Shown here in pieces: positions 32,175-40,302 of a stretch of 64,000 nucleotides of DNA. How positions within the stretch are numbered: position 1 is the first letter of the stretch; each line of letters opens with the position of its first letter. This DNA is from Patescibacteria group bacterium (GTDB lineage: Bacteria; Patescibacteriota; Dojkabacteria; GCA-002793355): assembly GCA_016860985.1 (NCBI GenBank), contig BOKM01000001.1, positions 399,462 to 463,461 of the forward strand, written 5' to 3'. Position numbers and translations under genes: made by a program. The notes below the pieces were generated by a model. The model worked only from the letters and a program-made list of their open reading frames with translations. It did no database searches and was not told the DNA's origin.

Positions 32175-32774
32175 ATGAAAGAATTTTTTGAATCATTCCC
32201 CGTTCTTGTCATCTCAATTATTGCAACAATTACCGGAGGAACTGCTGTTAACAAGGTAGTACAGGAAATTAAATCCACGACTCCAAATAACGAGCAAAAA
32301 GTGGTTGAAGTAAAAAGGGTTGAAACTACCCCAAGTGCACTGCCAACTCTAGTAGTAACAGAACCTGCTGTAAACCCAACTGCTACCCCAGAGGTGGTAC
32401 AACCCACTACGCCAAAAAACGGCCAAAACGCGACTTTTACTGCTGCGACCCTTGCACTTCATAACAAGCCTGGAGATTGCTACGTTGCCTACAAAGGAAT
32501 TGTCTACAATGTTTCTTCACACCCTTCGTGGGCTTCCTGCCGACACCACGGCACAAGTGGAGGAAGGGATATTACATCAATTTTTCCTCATTCTACAAGC
32601 TACTTTCTTACTTTGAGCAAAGTTGGCACGATTTCAACTAGTAACGCCACTAGTCCAACAAAACCTTCAGATGATTCTCATGACGACGATTCCGAAGATA
32701 ATGAAGACGAAGAACACGAGGATGAGAGAGAGGATGAGGACGAAAACGAGGTTGAAATAGAAGATGAAGACTAA
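32175..32774 (+). CDS. Membrane-anchored cytochrome b5-like heme-binding protein with acidic tail
   Basis: FT...LA.HN...DCYVAYKG.VYNVS, W...RHHG..GGRDIT..FPH...L.KVG; N-terminal TM and Thr/Pro linker. Confidence 0.8.
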   Translation: MKEFFESFPVLVISIIATITGGTAVNKVVQEIKSTTPNNEQKVVEVKRVETTPSALPTLVVTEPAVNPTATPEVVQPTTPKNGQNATFTAATLALHNKPGDCYVAYKGIVYNVSSHPSWASCRHHGTSGGRDITSIFPHSTSYFLTLSKVGTISTSNATSPTKPSDDSHDDDSEDNEDEEHEDEREDEDENEVEIEDED

Positions 32775-33135
32775 CATCACAAAGCAAAAAGCAAAGATCT
32801 CGATGAGGATGCTCGCAATCATCCTCATCGGTTGTCTTATAGGAATATTGTATCTTTACAAATGGCAACCGCAAAAAGAAACTGTACTCCCAAATCAATT
32901 AGAGTCCTTCACTCTCACTGAACTAGCAAAATACAATGGTAGTAATCCGACGTTGCCAATATATATCGGATTAAATGGTTTAGTCTACGATGTCAGCAGT
33001 GGAAAGAAATTTTATGAACAAGGTGGCACATATAATTGGCTTGCAGGAAAGGATTCCAGCAACGATTTAAACCTAATTGGAGGGGATATTATTAAGCGTA
33101 AATATCCAGTTGTTGGTATACTAACTACGGAGTAA
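32764..33135 (+). CDS. MAPR/PGRMC-like cytochrome b5 heme/steroid-binding protein
   Basis: FTL.EL.KYNG, IYIGLNGLVYDVSSGKKFYEQGGTY..LAGKDSS and KYPVVG match the MAPR pattern. Confidence 0.85.
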   Translation: MKTNITKQKAKISMRMLAIILIGCLIGILYLYKWQPQKETVLPNQLESFTLTELAKYNGSNPTLPIYIGLNGLVYDVSSGKKFYEQGGTYNWLAGKDSSNDLNLIGGDIIKRKYPVVGILTTE

Positions 33136-33140
33136 CAAGT

Positions 33141-34439
33141 ATGAATCGGACCTCACTTCTCTTTTTGTCGAGTATCGCAATCACATTTGTTCTTTGGATA
33201 CTTTCCAAAGAACATTTTGTGCTTTTTGTTTCGACTGATACGCTGAAAGCAATAACGCAGATTTGTGCACTAATCGGCGCTGTTGGATATTTTTTCACCT
33301 ATATTCTTTCAAGTAAACTTCCATTTCTTGAAAAAATAACCTCTTTAGACCAACTCTATAAAACGCACCGGCTAGTAGGAACACTCGCAGGTGCGGGTAT
33401 ATTACTCCATGTAAGTTCATTGATAGCGCGACTTTTACCACTCCCTTCGGCGTTTACGCTCTACCTTATTCCTAGCACAAATCTCTCTTATAACGTTGGA
33501 ATACTCGCTTTTTACTTACTACTTGTACTCCTTATTACTACGTTATATGCAAATCTGCCGTATCATATCTGGAAGCTTATACACAAGCTCGCTTCTTTTG
33601 GTATTCTCTTTGCTTTTCTGCACCTTCTCATTATTCCTAGCGATATAAGCACGAATTTACCCTTGAGAATATGGATGATTGGCATTGCTACTCTAGGAAT
33701 GATTGCGTGGGTATACAAAGAGTTTTTGGAGCAGTTTATTCGCAAATCTTTTGAGTATCGAGTAACCAATATCGCAAAAGCTGATGACATTACGGTCATT
33801 ACGATGCAAGCTCAAAAAGATTCGATTCCAGCTACACCGGGGTCTTTTGCTTTCTTTACTTTCTATGCAGATAACAAAGTCGTTACTAAGGAATCGCACC
33901 CGTTTACCATTCTAGACACAAACGCGAACGAACTCGCGATTGCTGTTAAAAACCTTGGAGACTACACGACTCTAATATCGTATATCCCCGTTGGATCAAA
34001 AGTCGTAGTAACCGGCCCTCATGGCAAGTTTGGAAAAAGGATACTTGCAACAAAAGAACAGCAAGTCTGGATAGGTGCAGGCATAGGGATCACCCCCTTT
34101 TATAGTGTCGCTTCGTATCTTCAAAAAAGGGGCTTATCTCATCATTCAATAGATTTATTTTATTTCACCTCAACGCCTGACAAAATTTTCCACCCTACGC
34201 TGCTCGCATCTGCAAAAGAAACTGGAATCAAGTATACATATGCGTGCACATCAATTTCTGGTCGCCAATTACCGTCGAACCTGCTCAGTGAGGACACAGT
34301 TTCTAACAAAAAAGTGACTTATTTTTTGTGTGGTCCAGCAGGAATGATTAGCGCTTATTCTGAATATCTTTTATCTAAAGGCGTACCCCAAAAGAGAATT
34401 ATTACTGAAGCATTTGAGTTTAAATCGCTTGAAATATGA
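33141..34439 (+). CDS. Ferric reductase/NADPH-oxidase-like flavocytochrome (TM heme, FAD and NAD(P)H domains)
   Basis: Bis-His pairs KTHR..LLHV and LIHK..FLHL; ESHPFT, GPHG, GAGIGITPF, FLCGP and EAFEF motifs. Confidence 0.9.
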   Translation: MNRTSLLFLSSIAITFVLWILSKEHFVLFVSTDTLKAITQICALIGAVGYFFTYILSSKLPFLEKITSLDQLYKTHRLVGTLAGAGILLHVSSLIARLLPLPSAFTLYLIPSTNLSYNVGILAFYLLLVLLITTLYANLPYHIWKLIHKLASFGILFAFLHLLIIPSDISTNLPLRIWMIGIATLGMIAWVYKEFLEQFIRKSFEYRVTNIAKADDITVITMQAQKDSIPATPGSFAFFTFYADNKVVTKESHPFTILDTNANELAIAVKNLGDYTTLISYIPVGSKVVVTGPHGKFGKRILATKEQQVWIGAGIGITPFYSVASYLQKRGLSHHSIDLFYFTSTPDKIFHPTLLASAKETGIKYTYACTSISGRQLPSNLLSEDTVSNKKVTYFLCGPAGMISAYSEYLLSKGVPQKRIITEAFEFKSLEI

Positions 34440-34852
34440 ATCTTCGATCGATTCTCACTCCTGCTTTCTCTGCTTTTCTTATTACTGTTATGGCTAGTGT
34501 TACATTAAATATATTTAGTCCCCAACAAGCAGGGCGTGACGACACTTCGGTTGAAACTTCTGACATTCCGATGCCAACCCAAGCGACTGACCTAACGGTA
34601 ACACCTAGTGTTTCTACCAAACCGAGCACTACGCCCTCTGTAGCAAAACCAACTGCAACACCAAAGGCAACCGCACGCCCAACAGCAAAACCTTGCATTG
34701 TTACAGTCAACGGAAGCAGATATGATGTTACGTCACTACGAAAATCACATTCTGGGGGGAATATCTTTGTATGTGGCACAAACATGACCTCCACCTTTCA
34801 ATCTATGCACGGAAACGACTATAATATCATTAGAAAATATAAAATCTCGTAA
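34436..34852 (+). CDS. Membrane-anchored cytochrome b5-like protein on a Thr/Pro stalk
   Basis: CIVTVNG..YDVT....HSGG....CGTNMT..F..MHG, matching the HPGG...H b5 pattern. Confidence 0.8.
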   Translation: MNLRSILTPAFSAFLITVMASVTLNIFSPQQAGRDDTSVETSDIPMPTQATDLTVTPSVSTKPSTTPSVAKPTATPKATARPTAKPCIVTVNGSRYDVTSLRKSHSGGNIFVCGTNMTSTFQSMHGNDYNIIRKYKIS

Positions 34853-34854
34853 CA

Positions 34855-35526
34855 ATGAAACTTTTACTAATCGAAGATGACACCGTTTTGGCAGAAAACA
34901 CGAAACTATACCTAGAACGACTTAAGTATAAGGTTGAGGTTGCGCACAATGGGAGTATTGGCCTTCTTAAAGCACAAAAGCACACCTATAGCGTCATTCT
35001 TTTGGACTGGATGATCCCGTATAAGGACGGTATAACCGTATTGAAAGAACTGAGAGAAGGCGGAAATACAACCCCCGTAATTATGACTACAGCAAAAGGC
35101 CAATTAGAACAAAAACTTGATGGGTTCTCTGCAGGTGCAGATGATTACCTCTCAAAACCATACACTCTCGCAGAACTCGCGGCAAGAATCGAAGCGGTAA
35201 TCCGAAGAGCACATACTTCTCAAAATACCTCTGTACTTAAAATTCGTGATTTGAATGTAAATATTCACACGACAAATGTAACACTAGGCAAAAATGAACT
35301 CCTTCTTACACCAACAGAATACTCAATCTTGGAGTATTTGTGCGTCAATAAAGGAAAGACCGTATCTCGAGCAGAATTACTGCATCATGTGTGGAATGAC
35401 GATGTGAATCAATTTACCAATCATGTAGATGTTCATGTTAAGAACTTGCGCAAAAAGCTAGCACAATACTCCGAGGAGCCTTACATACTTACAGTAAAGA
35501 ACAGAGGTTATCTCATAAATGAGTAA
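34855..35526 (+). CDS. OmpR/PhoB-family response regulator
   Basis: LLIEDD, ILLDWMIP, GADDYLSKPY; winged helix LTPTEY..VDVHV..LRKK..RGY. Confidence 0.95.
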   Translation: MKLLLIEDDTVLAENTKLYLERLKYKVEVAHNGSIGLLKAQKHTYSVILLDWMIPYKDGITVLKELREGGNTTPVIMTTAKGQLEQKLDGFSAGADDYLSKPYTLAELAARIEAVIRRAHTSQNTSVLKIRDLNVNIHTTNVTLGKNELLLTPTEYSILEYLCVNKGKTVSRAELLHHVWNDDVNQFTNHVDVHVKNLRKKLAQYSEEPYILTVKNRGYLINE

Positions 35527-36919
35527 ATACAAGTTAACTGCACTCCAGCAAATTACAATAAACTTTGTTACCGGAGTGTTCTTAGTACTCGCCATCGTTT
35601 TTGCGACAATAACCGCTCTTTCCTCAACTCTTCTTGAAAACAAAATCAAAACCGACTTATTCCGAGAAGCCGAAGAAATTGTGACACAATACATGAGACT
35701 TGAGGATGATAGAATTACATACTTTACGGAAGACAATGGGCAAACTTTAGAGCAAGATCTTACAACTGATCAACTCTCTGCTATGGTCACAACTCAAGAA
35801 GGCGAGTCCATTGGAAAATTCGGATTCTTTGCTGCTCCAGAGTTTTCTGAAAATGAAAAACAAGCACTCTCACCAAACATCGAATCTGCCTGCAGTGGCA
35901 ACACATACTTTTACGCACGGCAATCACTACAAAAAGAAAATGCACTTCTACTTTATTATCCCATTCTAGCTGAAGGAAGATGCAGAGGAGTTGTTATCAT
36001 CGCCAGTAACACACAGCTCATAGATGATATGTCCCGCATCAACCTTATTGCTATATCCTTTGCGCTGGGAATTGCCCTAATACTCGCACTTTTCATTGCA
36101 AGGCTCACAGCTAAAAAAATTCTACACCCACTTACTTCACTTACCACAACTATAAAACAAATTGATCTTTCTCGAAGTCAGGCCGAAGTTGTTTCGCCAT
36201 ATGCGAAAGAGGATGAAATCACTTCACTGATTTCATCCTACAATGCGCTCGCAAAAAAAGTAGCCACAATCGTTGCTCAAGAAAAAGAATTTGCGTCAAA
36301 AGCATCACACGAACTTAAAACACCACTGGCAAGAGTTACAACAACGTTAGATATTCTATCTCTTGACCTAGAATCGATTACTGATTCATCCGTCAGAATA
36401 ATGCTTCAAGAGAAAATTTCTGCCGCCCAACAAGAGCTTAAAGGTATTGGTGATACGATATCACTCCTTTTACAAGCGACACGCGCAAAAAATCTCCCAC
36501 AAAATCATGAGCGCATAAAAATTTCACAATTAATAGCTCACGAAATTTAAAGTATTGCGAAAGAATACAAAAGCAAAGAAATAACCGTACATCATGACGT
36601 AGTACCCTACATCGTATTCGCAGACAAGCTCATTTTGACGCATATTTTTAGAAACTGTTTTAGCAACGCCTTCAAACATAACAAACTAAAAGGAAGTATA
36701 CAGATTTCATACGCAATCGAAGCCAACACAATCGAGATTTCCATACAAAACTCAATTCTTTCTACTGAGGGCACAGTAAAAGACAGCCATAAAATTGGGT
36801 CTTCTGTTATTGAAACCTTGTGTACTGCAGCAGGTTACACCACAAAAACAAGACGAGATTCTACTACCTACGAAATATCAATCGGAAATATCCCGCTCAA
36901 CGCTACTCAACCACAATAG
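35519..36919 (+). pseudogene. Sensor histidine kinase (2 TM, HAMP, HisKA, HATPase) interrupted by an in-frame TAA at 36548-36550
   Basis: H-box SHELKTPL; after the TAA the same frame continues SIAKEYK...IFRNCFSNAFKH (N-box) to 36919. Confidence 0.75.
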
Positions 36920-37610
36920 CCGGTAGTTGGTCGTAGTGGTTAAATTCATAATCTGCAACAACTTCAGGATCGTGACCTTCTACATGGCCATCAACTTCTG
37001 GGTTAAAGATTGCTGCCTTAATTCCAACGAGCTGTGCTCCTTGGATATCATTTTTGTAATTGTTTCCAATCATTAAGGCTTCAGTATTCTTTACGTTTAG
37101 TTTTGAAAGTGCCAACGTAAAAATTGCAGAGAATGGTTTCTCGAAAATCGTTTCTTCTGAAGCAAATACTTGATCAATGTATGGAAGAAGCCCAACAGCT
37201 TCAATCTTCCTGATTCTTCCACGTAAATCACCGTCAGAAACGACTGCTGTTTTGACTCCTGCCTCATGAATTTTCTTTAAGGCATCAACGACACCAGGAT
37301 ACAAACTAACATTCTCATCAAAAAACTCCCAATAGATATCCTCTGCTGCGGGCAGATCTGATAATGAATATTGCGCACCAATTTCATCAAGCGCGTGCCT
37401 ATATACTAAAATTCGGCTGTGGCGGGTGTGCACTGTCGGAAAATTCTTTCTGATAAGTGTATCTTTTTTCTTTACAATCGGAAAGAATTCGTTAAGCGAA
37501 AGATTGTTTTTTGCTGCAAGATAATACGACGCAAATTCTAATGCGCGATCATAAACCTGGCTGCTTTTGATGAGCGTATCATCTAAATCCATCAATAGAG
37601 CTCGAAACAT
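36903..37610 (-). CDS. HAD-superfamily hydrolase (YjjG-like phosphatase/nucleotidase)
   Basis: DLDDTL motif I, VSDG, EKP and MIGNNYKNDIQGA. Confidence 0.9.
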   Translation of the reverse strand: MFRALLMDLDDTLIKSSQVYDRALEFASYYLAAKNNLSLNEFFPIVKKKDTLIRKNFPTVHTRHSRILVYRHALDEIGAQYSLSDLPAAEDIYWEFFDENVSLYPGVVDALKKIHEAGVKTAVVSDGDLRGRIRKIEAVGLLPYIDQVFASEETIFEKPFSAIFTLALSKLNVKNTEALMIGNNYKNDIQGAQLVGIKAAIFNPEVDGHVEGHDPEVVADYEFNHYDQLPAIVVE

Positions 37611-37632
37611 ATAAAACTAACTATATTTTATG

Positions 37633-37739
37633 TTCTGCCCCTGTTTTACGAAGTTGAGCTATAAGTTTGCTCACTATGGTAAAACACCCACTTTTGTGAG
37701 ACGGTATTACCCGCGGGGAGAGAAAGTTCTTCACTTTCT
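37633..37739 (-). ncRNA. Candidate structured cis-regulatory RNA (four-way junction) in the 5' leader of the HAD gene
   Basis: Helices CCCC/GGGG, GCGG/CCGU, CUCAC/GUGGG and UGUUUUAC/GUAAAACA meet with no linker nucleotides; G-U pairs work only on the minus strand; promoter immediately upstream. Confidence 0.55.
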
Positions 37740-37745
37740 AAACGA

Positions 37746-37754
37746 ATTATACCA
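37746..37754 (-). promoter_or_regulatory. Extended -10 promoter TGGTATAAT for the structured leader and HAD gene
   Basis: Perfect TGnTATAAT on the minus strand, 6 nt upstream of the first hairpin. Confidence 0.65.
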
Positions 37755-37775
37755 TAAATTGACTGTTCGCAGATA

Positions 37776-39233
37776 CTACTGATTACTTGTAACTTGAGCT
37801 CCAGAGCGAAAAACATTGTCTAAATCGAGCAGATAATACCACCAATCATTTGCTTTTCCGTCGCTTCCTACACCTTTATATTTCGGAAAGTGTTTCATCC
37901 ACCAGCCAAAATACCCATATTCGGTGCAACCCCATTCTGTACATGTAACATTTTTCTTCACTTTGCCATATTTCGACAAATCTGGATAATCGTAAAAAGT
38001 GTCGCAGGTTGTTGCAACAACATTTGTTGTGTTGCCGTAATCATAATCACTGACAGCATTGGGAGGGTAATGCCCCGATCCACATCCACTATAAGAAAAA
38101 TCAGGTGACTGTGCCTTCACTAGCCCAAACTTATCCCAGCTATGGCTAATCCTATTTTCCGCCCAACTGCCATAAACCGTTCCCATAGTTGCTTCGAATC
38201 TGTGACTAAAATTGTGAATACTTGTCCCTATGTCTCGCTCGTATGACATTGGCATCATTACCGTCGTTCGCGAGTATGTATTGTCAATAATTGGTGGAGA
38301 ATTAATTCCAAACGCATGAGGTCCGATTGCCTGACTTTCCCACATTGACATCCATGGTGCACCGTAAATCCACACTTCATCAATTGTTCCGTTGTTTACT
38401 TTGCCTGGGAGCCCATACGTAGACATTAGTTTTTTCATATTTGTTTCGCCATTAAGACATTTTTCGTGGGTTGGGTCGTTAAGACAAGCAAAAAATTCAC
38501 TTTGCGTGTAGGTAAAGTTTGCAGTACATTGTGTTGGACGAGAACAATTGCCAGCTGCAGAACATTTACTCCAATACTCGTTCGAGAAGCATCCATTAGT
38601 CCATTCTGTAAAGCTATTATGCGTATACTCTTCTACAATATTAAAAGTAACATGACCACTCGTTGTAGTCTTAAAAAAACTCGCAACCTGTGGGGCAAGC
38701 TGTGCTGGGTCGTTCCAACCCGTGCACTGATGAAGCTTCATTTGAGCGCCGCCTTGTGATGGACACGAGATAGTCGGATTAACATGAATTAGTAAAACCT
38801 TGCGAATAAAATGCTTAGAGTTTAATACATTAGTACTTGTTGCTGTTGGTGTTTGAGTAGTCGTAGCAGTTGGCGTTGTACTATTTGTCACAATCGGCGT
38901 TGCGCTATTTGTTGGTGTTGGTGTACTAACAGAAGGCAAAGGCACTGCGGATACTGTTACTTGCGGAGGTAATAATGTAACGACTGGTAAAGAATTGCCT
39001 ACCCACGAATCTACATGGATACTAGGAACAAATAGGTGACCAATGGGAGTTGCAGCTGGAGTAGGGTCTCCCTTTATCCCTTGCACCCAATCACGGATAA
39101 TCCGTGTCTTTTCGGGAGTAACCACAAACAAAGATAAAGTGATACCTACCAATAAGCCAGCACTAATACCAATTAACCACATTGCTGTAGATATCTTTTT
39201 TTCTGGAAGCAATGGCGGTGCAAATTCAACCAT
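37776..39233 (-). CDS. Membrane-anchored Cys/Trp-rich extracellular protein, possible metallo-hydrolase
   Basis: N-terminal TM, Thr/Pro linker, DEVWIYG, YER....IHNFSHRFE and GSGHYPPN motifs. Confidence 0.65.
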   Translation of the reverse strand: MVEFAPPLLPEKKISTAMWLIGISAGLLVGITLSLFVVTPEKTRIIRDWVQGIKGDPTPAATPIGHLFVPSIHVDSWVGNSLPVVTLLPPQVTVSAVPLPSVSTPTPTNSATPIVTNSTTPTATTTQTPTATSTNVLNSKHFIRKVLLIHVNPTISCPSQGGAQMKLHQCTGWNDPAQLAPQVASFFKTTTSGHVTFNIVEEYTHNSFTEWTNGCFSNEYWSKCSAAGNCSRPTQCTANFTYTQSEFFACLNDPTHEKCLNGETNMKKLMSTYGLPGKVNNGTIDEVWIYGAPWMSMWESQAIGPHAFGINSPPIIDNTYSRTTVMMPMSYERDIGTSIHNFSHRFEATMGTVYGSWAENRISHSWDKFGLVKAQSPDFSYSGCGSGHYPPNAVSDYDYGNTTNVVATTCDTFYDYPDLSKYGKVKKNVTCTEWGCTEYGYFGWWMKHFPKYKGVGSDGKANDWWYYLLDLDNVFRSGAQVTSNQ

Positions 39234-39234
39234 A

Positions 39235-40302
39235 TTAATTGTGAACCACAATTAAGTCACCTACCTTGCTCCATTCAAACACTTTTTTAGCATCACTGAC
39301 CGTTAACCTTAGACATCCGGTACTTCTTGGCTTACCTATGTTTGTTTCTGGTTCAAAGATCTTCTTATCTCCAGTTTTTTGAAAACCTGGATACCAATAT
39401 ACTAAAGCATGTATACCGAGCATCGCTTTTTGTCGCGAATCATATGTAAAAGCCTGCCAGTAAGGCATCCATTTGTCGGCGGTTGAAGACCACGCGAGTG
39501 GCGATTTGTTAAGAATCTCATAAACACCAACAGGATTGTATTCCGGGAATGCACCTGAAATTCTGAATTTTTTGTAGCTTCCCTTTTCCCACATAAACAT
39601 CAATTGTCGAGAGCCATCAAACTCTAAATATTTTTGAGCAAACTGCCCATCTGTATTTGGCAAATCCTTACGCACAGGAACTTGTAACACCATTGGTTTA
39701 ATGGTCGTATACATTCCAGTTACTAATGAAAACTCACTATTACTGATATAGAGCTCTGCAACTTGTTGAGCCAAGCTCTCGTAGTCAACAACATTATCAT
39801 TGATTCTTGCCTGAACTGTTTTGTTCCCCTGCTTGTTTTTTAGTGTTTCTAGCGGTTGTGCAAAACGAATATTCTTTTCAAGTAGCTGCTGCAAACAGGG
39901 AATATCGATAGCAAGTTGGTAGCTTTTGCAAGAACCAATTTGAGGAACCTGCTGGGTGTATTGGCCGCACGAGAGTATTTCAGCCGCGCTCACAACGAGC
40001 TCTTCCGTGCCAAAATACAGGGCTACTTCTGGTCGAACATGCTTTAGGGACTTAGTGTAGTCGCTCGTACTTATACAACTTTCACTGCTCGTAGATTCGC
40101 CAAGTACAGCAGTTATGTTTTCTTGCTCCTTTAAAGCTAATTCGCTCACCCGCTGCGACATTGTATCTTCTACAACGACAGGAGATGGTTCTTGGTTCGA
40201 TGCGAAAATAAGTGGGTACTTAAGAACTCCAATGCCCCCAAATATTCCAAAGATACCAAAACAAAGAAGCCCCAAGAAGAATTTGTCGGAATTACTACTC
40301 AT
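39235..40302 (-). CDS. L,D-transpeptidase (YkuD) family protein
   Basis: WMPYW, GIH and IGKPRSTGCLRL (catalytic His/Cys); N-terminal TM. Confidence 0.85.
   Translation of the reverse strand: MSSNSDKFFLGLLCFGIFGIFGGIGVLKYPLIFASNQEPSPVVVEDTMSQRVSELALKEQENITAVLGESTSSESCISTSDYTKSLKHVRPEVALYFGTEELVVSAAEILSCGQYTQQVPQIGSCKSYQLAIDIPCLQQLLEKNIRFAQPLETLKNKQGNKTVQARINDNVVDYESLAQQVAELYISNSEFSLVTGMYTTIKPMVLQVPVRKDLPNTDGQFAQKYLEFDGSRQLMFMWEKGSYKKFRISGAFPEYNPVGVYEILNKSPLAWSSTADKWMPYWQAFTYDSRQKAMLGIHALVYWYPGFQKTGDKKIFEPETNIGKPRSTGCLRLTVSDAKKVFEWSKVGDLIVVHN

Follow-up and report, generated by a model that had tools for sequence, protein, structure and literature searches.

A predicted structured RNA ahead of a HAD phosphatase gene

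In Candidatus Dojkabacteria, the leader of a HAD phosphatase gene contains, on the evidence of comparative sequence analysis, a real and covarying structured RNA that is unclassified; we regard it as a new, narrowly distributed leader motif and as a candidate regulator. The RNA keeps its position ahead of the start codon, is conserved above the level of neutral sites, bears compensatory pairs in three of its helices (P2, P3 and P4) and is linked to the HAD gene in all carriers: the source genome (G000, 1.06 Mb) and two congeneric genomes (G001 and G004). Positions refer to the window, i.e. the whole 64,000-nt stretch of DNA that was analysed, and the features of the locus are listed here along the minus strand:

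37776..39251, minus strand: upstream gene without Pfam or NCBIfam match, not conserved ahead of the element
37746..37754, minus strand: extended -10 box TGGTATAAT, read from the sequence, with the predicted start site at about 37739-37740
37721..37739, minus strand: 5'-terminal hairpin, species-specific and outside the conserved motif (pair probabilities 0.61-1.0)
37637..37719, minus strand: conserved four-way-junction core of P1 to P4, about 90 nt, between the -10 box and the HAD AUG
37715..37718, minus strand: 5' strand of P1, CCCC, partner 37638-37641; homologues add a fifth pair (G-C), and four of the five pairs are invariant
37701..37714, minus strand: P2 hairpin, loop variable in length and sequence; one compensatory pair (G-C to A-U)
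37687..37700, minus strand: P3 hairpin, whose 5 bp include an invariant U-G pair and one compensatory pair; its loop has 4 nt, and a U run comes next
37642..37686, minus strand: P4 arm with two stems (7-8 bp and 5-6 bp) that together carry three compensatory pairs and are separated by a symmetric internal loop that keeps its size; end loop variable
37621..37734, minus strand: GTG frame of 37 codons, in our judgement no leader peptide
37611..37636, minus strand: A/U-rich spacer before the AUG (23-27 nt across the three carriers), with no Shine-Dalgarno site
36903..37610, minus strand: HAD-IA phosphatase of 235 aa (Pfam PF00702 and PF13419 above cut-off)

The helix strands, the -10 box and both G-U pairs of the initial annotation were confirmed directly in the sequence, as were the 22 nt that separate the 3' AGAA from the AUG (37610) and the GTG frame itself (37734-37621). 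The predicted start site is supported by the box-to-start spacing of 5-6 nt found genome-wide; G001 has an identical -10 box before its element, and the box of G004 differs by one change. The mostly leaderless background reported for the window holds for the whole genome: over 898 crudely called ORFs of G000, the distances from box to ATG peak at 5-6 nt (139 at 5 nt and 77 at 6 nt, versus about 5-20 per bin for 9-34 nt).

Further long structured leaders behind -10 boxes occur in G000 at 970787, 101096, 6579 and 694241 of contig C1 (all plus strand; z -3.2 to -6.3). By eye, the genes behind these leaders encode, respectively, an unknown membrane protein, a DEAD-box-like helicase, an unknown protein and an S1-like protein. 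A leader that looks T-box-like by eye precedes a prolyl-tRNA synthetase-like gene (G000:C1:169370-169576, minus strand).

The region 37590-37760 has a predicted folding energy of -44.8 kcal/mol (z -3.6), which none of 200 shuffles equalled or bettered, and all 26 pairs of the four-way junction have probabilities of 0.68-1.0 when the RNA is folded from its predicted start. That the four helices meet without unpaired bases, as had been described, is true of G000, whereas the homologues have one or two extra bases or a mismatch at the junction.

Conservation and covariation

A homologous core lies between the same -10 box and the AUG in G001 and G004 (proteins 85% identical), and its sequence is 68-76% identical, whereas the four-fold sites in the corresponding gene pairs agree at 39-50%. 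In the alignment of the three sequences 93% of 87 cells are paired, versus 37-52% in slid controls, and RNAalifold recovers the same four helices unaided. Among the 29 pairs, 19 are invariant and five compensatory (one each in P2 and P3, three in P4). These covariation counts come from three related sequences and are indicative rather than a significance test; the shuffle counts (1-2 of 500) likewise are not probabilities, because the tested structure was drawn from the same three sequences. The covariation among homologues that the initial annotation had named as a test is thus present, and conservation sits in the helices rather than at the codon level alone. The leader RNA that it had proposed for the HAD gene carries compensatory pairs and is unclassified in Rfam.

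Invariant bases are found in P1, in the junction-proximal pairs of P2, in P3 (including the fixed U-G) and in the lower and upper stems of P4. The end loops differ in size and sequence, and the internal loop of P4 is constant in size while its letters are not; across the three sequences, invariant columns number only 3 of 10 in the internal loop and 1 of 4 in L3. Loops that drift in length and sequence, with so few invariant columns, fit selection on shape. In all three carriers the element stands immediately before the HAD orthologue, 23-27 nt from the AUG, while the upstream neighbours differ in each of them (a divergent TspO-like gene in G001, an AI-2E transporter in G004).

Two modes of control proposed at first are barely credible in the light of these homologues: a leader peptide encoded by the GTG frame, or a switch in which the UUCU of the 5' hairpin pairs instead with the 3' AGAA. 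In G000 the frame is indeed open and the four bases are complementary. However, neither part exists in the two homologues, so that both proposals are unsupported: the 5' hairpin and the 3' AGAA are missing from G001 and G004, each of the three frames through the element is broken by stops in G001, and the equivalent frame of G004 is without an ATG, GTG or TTG start. Even in G000 the four UUCU/AGAA pairs have a probability of 0.00, and the supposedly exclusive fold is 4.3 kcal/mol worse than the core together with the 5' hairpin. Base 37729 is absent from a strain contig of RNA run X18 (one contig, depth 10); this 1-nt deletion falls near the beginning of the GTG frame and shifts it, while the hairpin stem is kept and a GAAA loop results.

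Distribution of the element

The element is present in three of the five genomes of the genus, and a covariance model built on its three sequences (R1) matches only these three among 151 class genomes; a three-sequence model is insensitive, and distant versions could escape it. The model gave no match at E<=5 in G002, G003 or G006 and no leader match at the 22 other orthologue loci (one match at E 0.71). Among 150 other genomes of a phylum sample nothing credible was found, the one extra match (E 0.03) lying inside a reading frame. A loose pattern matched 14 of all 221 class genomes, and none of the loci in the 11 non-carriers was a full element by the model. When genome contigs were scanned with a pattern (20 of 64 parts), at least 120 loci were obtained, with a best model E of 0.6 among the matches listed; viral scans (one of which covered 29 of 64 parts) gave chance matches only, and the element was not matched in plasmids and phages. 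The orthologues obtained from a metagenome protein scan (44 of 64 parts) were no more than 56% identical; the six that were inspected had short leaders, and the 33 of 80 metagenome loci run against the model yielded no true match. The best of the metagenome loci (L045, E 0.23) was rejected, being by eye the reverse strand of a tRNA-Asn.

The HAD gene of G002 (one contig, 92% complete) is leaderless, with its box 5 nt before the ATG, and no copy of the element was found elsewhere in this genome. Because G002 groups with G001 and G004 on the protein tree (94/90 support), with G000 outside, loss of the element together with its leader is suggested in G002 rather than a late gain in the others. 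In G003 (86% complete) neither the HAD gene nor the element was found. In G006 (78%), of a sister genus, the HAD orthologue is preceded by a different multi-hairpin leader of about 210 nt with a 9-bp closing stem (L005:1285-1500; G006:C1, ahead of 293731), which has no Rfam match and no homologue in the 221 class genomes. Homology between this leader and our element was rejected; R1 has no match in G006 (E<=5).

Such a patchy picture could in principle be left by a chance fold or by the decaying remnant of a mobile element without present function: the distribution is narrow, G002 is without the element, and an unrelated long leader stands at the same place in G006. We nevertheless consider this very improbable, given that conservation is well above that of four-fold sites, that five pairs are compensatory, and that each of the three carriers holds a single full-length copy.

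Possible modes of action

We tentatively favour, at somewhat less than an even chance, a genus-limited leader that acts in cis, through its shape, on translation or mRNA stability. Most mRNAs of the genome appear to begin at the AUG, and against this background a structured leader of 110-130 nt that is kept across species in spite of near-saturated silent sites points to real control of the HAD gene. Transcription would begin from the -10 box. With the junction closed, GGGGC would be held in P1, and the A/U-rich spacer and the AUG would be more open; with P1 open, GGGGC would be free for pairing with codons 4-5, which would lengthen a hairpin over the AUG. The balance might be tipped by a hypothetical partner, a protein or the ribosome, that recognises the junction and the fixed-length P4 arm, so that output would be set through leader shape rather than through a small-molecule pocket.

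The pairing of GGGGC with codons 4-5, which extends the AUG hairpin, can form in all three genomes, and the resulting fold lies above the P1 fold by 0.3 (G000), 0.75 (G001) and 7.4 kcal/mol (G004). A two-state platform is thus possible, the modelled alternative fold being competitive in two of the three genomes. A conserved AUG-sequestering hairpin was rejected: the AUG hairpin is no better than those of shuffled spacers (fractions 0.28, 0.43 and 0.91 in the three genomes), and the fold is uncompetitive in G004. Forcing either fold barely shifts the mean accessibility around the AUG (0.50/0.40, 0.45/0.42 and 0.53/0.50). A second alternative helix, CCCGC/GYGGG, was also rejected, as it is populated only in G001 (0.20-0.86 versus at most 0.002). 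None of the three spacers has a Shine-Dalgarno site, though the 16S 3' end keeps CCUCC, and no terminator was found after P1; P3 and the U run behind it score weakly as a terminator-like site. A conserved expression platform, whether terminator or start-site sequestration, was not found.

Position alone is no proof of action in cis, because the tRNA genes of G000 have the same layout. Many of them lie 7-18 nt behind a -10 box, and several have an ATG 5-30 nt downstream. This leads to the alternative of an independent small RNA with a function in trans and paired ends, co-transcribed with or processed from the HAD transcript as tRNAs are here, which we consider unlikely on balance while giving it serious weight. 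P1 does join both ends of the element, and near-identical contigs cover it in all four RNA runs (X15, X16, X18 and X20), two of which, from two studies, end without loose ends at 37624 (X15) and 37625 (X18). On the other hand, there is no terminator behind P1, the contigs of X16 and X20 continue to 37576 and 37602, and the contigs of all four runs extend upstream of the predicted start. Because all of them reach past that start, they may represent read-through or DNA; contigs show neither strand nor ends, so that the stops at 37624/37625 hint no more than weakly at a 3' end, and no weight is given to the missing RNA-contig cover of the HAD gene. Moreover, G002 and G006, each in one contig, hold no copy, and because of this absence the element is not taken for a housekeeping RNA.

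Several known RNAs were considered and rejected. RNase P RNA and tmRNA are both found elsewhere in all five genomes (G000, G001, G002, G004 and G006), the RNase P matches in these genomes being short (about 230-260 nt). SRP and 6S RNA were rejected in the absence of a family match at the element; SRP RNA, the Ffh M-domain and 6S RNA were matched in none of the five genomes. An atypical tRNA-Cys was rejected as well, as G001 and G004 carry the element plus an exact tRNA-Cys motif elsewhere. ARAGORN called no tRNA in the window, and in G000 it did not find tRNA-Cys(GCA), tRNA-Leu(UAA) or tRNA-Leu(CAG), while tRNA-Ile(UAU) is present; since four relatives have the tRNA-Cys motif, these missing tRNAs probably reflect a gap in the assembly. 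The likeness to the tRNA genes of G000 consists in the succession of a box, about 10 nt, a cloverleaf-like RNA with paired ends, a short spacer and an ATG. In contrast to a tRNA with its 7-nt anticodon loop, the element has a 4-nt loop at the position of the anticodon arm, is without a T-loop and receives no ARAGORN call.

The HAD gene and its neighbourhood

The downstream HAD hydrolase of the initial annotation is borne out by its Pfam matches, and named homologues of the protein come mostly from Candidatus Dojkabacteria; orthologues of 78-94% identity (P0007, P0009 and P0011-P0013) were met as protein sequences only. The gene is assigned to HAD-IA, with no substrate-level family above its cut-off: the best NCBIfam scores are those of RuBP 5-phosphatase (134), TIGR02253 (125) and YjjG (103), all below cut-off. 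The RuBP phosphatase of haloarchaea belongs to the HAD enzymes and acts specifically on RuBP (PMC9700705), and its family (NF053830) shares the HAD-IA fold and motifs with our protein, which reaches 134 bits versus a cut-off of 330. The same fold and motifs are shared with the YjjG-YfnB nucleotidases, where the YjjG score of 103 stands against a cut-off of 160 and YfnB is the closest solved structure.

An orthologue of the HAD gene is present in 24 of 221 class genomes (E<=1e-50). RuBisCO was found, as compared by eye, in all 24 of these genomes and in 133 of the 221 overall, and it occurs in 92 of 100 genomes of one family; as kinship confounds this association, it cannot settle the substrate of the HAD enzyme. 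G000 also has an AMP-phosphorylase-like gene, with a score below cut-off.

Convergent with the HAD gene lies a module of ferric-reductase, cytochrome-b5-like and two-component genes (window 32175-36919), parts of which also follow the HAD orthologue in G001 and G002. Its kinase ORF (35519-36550) ends before the ATPase part, which forms a separate ORF (36635-36919). In many distant orthologues (L411, L417, L418, L420, L422, L423, L424, L040 and L041) a RadC/JAB-family-like gene appears by eye directly upstream.

A CTGCCC-like word (at most one mismatch) was seen by eye within 18 nt before the HAD start in 8 of 30 orthologue rows from three clades (L411, L412, L417, L420, L425, L426, L427 and L428), against a background of 18 among 885 genes of G000 and 4 among 254 other genes. 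The word shows complementarity to the element's invariant GGGGCA, and it also stands before the RuBisCO gene of G000. CUGCC as a genome-wide start motif was rejected (11 versus 3-10 in further windows).

Comparison with known riboswitch classes

The search of Rfam proposed at the outset gave no match in the whole window at the gathering threshold, none in 37500-37900 at E<=10 and none at E<=5 for the elements in loci L002 and L003; the database was Rfam 15, which lags behind the literature, so that a published motif not listed there is possible. No description of the motif was found in the available parts of the literature on Dojkabacteria or CPR riboswitch candidates, and terms searched in the main text of PMC11109978 led to no hydrolase-linked or Patescibacteria motif. 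The regulatory RNAs of ultra-small Patescibacteria are barely charted, and the element is at present a small orphan motif with good support.

In our view it is distinctly unlikely that the element is a riboswitch of a new class, with a four-way junction that would bind a putative metabolite or ion, close P1 and free the AUG of a phosphatase of the nucleoside or RuBisCO pathway. Invariant bases, including the U-G pair, do gather round the junction, and two near-equal folds exist in two of the three genomes. Precedents are the czcD riboswitches, which bind metals at a four-way junction (PMC9389577), and an ADP-preferring class, for which a link to nucleotide hydrolases is given by a title cited in PMC9971707. 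RuBP 5-phosphatase as the best family score, the constant company of RuBisCO in the orthologue-bearing genomes and the AMP-phosphorylase-like gene would suit such a sensor. However, kinship confounds the RuBisCO link, the enzyme assignment falls short of its cut-off, the element is restricted to one genus and absent from the 22 other orthologue loci, and the alternative fold is uncompetitive in G004. As the three sequences show no conserved unpaired pocket and no expression platform, be it Shine-Dalgarno site or terminator, the riboswitch is a minority reading. Its most specific version is improbable: a putative new Dojkabacteria riboswitch, in which the bare junction would sense a pentose bisphosphate or nucleotide (RuBP, R15P or NMP) and gate a start without Shine-Dalgarno site, switching on a phosphatase that drains the pool. 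If the element did bind a sugar phosphate or nucleotide, it would represent a new riboswitch class and would name the pathway of the enzyme; few sugar-type ligands have riboswitches (PMC9971707).

The ykkC sequence and fold gave no Rfam match at E<=10. We take the nucleoside-diphosphate riboswitch class to be ykkC subtype 2c, and the ykkC fold presumably differs from that of our element. The point of likeness to the nucleoside-diphosphate riboswitch (PMC9971707) is that our element, too, leads a gene for what may be a nucleotide or sugar-phosphate hydrolase.

Like our element, the NiCo (czcD) riboswitch (RF02683) forms a compact four-way junction within a 5' leader, and in both the junction is where conservation concentrates; the metal sites of NiCo lie at the junction (PMC9389577). 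In contrast to NiCo, the gene downstream of our element encodes a HAD phosphatase rather than a metal exporter, and no terminator lies behind the junction; RF02683 matched neither G000 nor G004 at E<=10, and its two weak matches in G001 lie on other contigs. The yjdF riboswitch features conserved D- and T-loop-like L2 and L4, an A-rich junction and pairing with the Shine-Dalgarno site (PMC9142559), whereas L2 and L4 of our element drift, its junction has 0-2 unpaired bases and a Shine-Dalgarno site is absent. What the two have in common is a cloverleaf of P1 to P4 placed close before the start codon, and a tRNA-like leader can raise translation in cis (PMC9142559).
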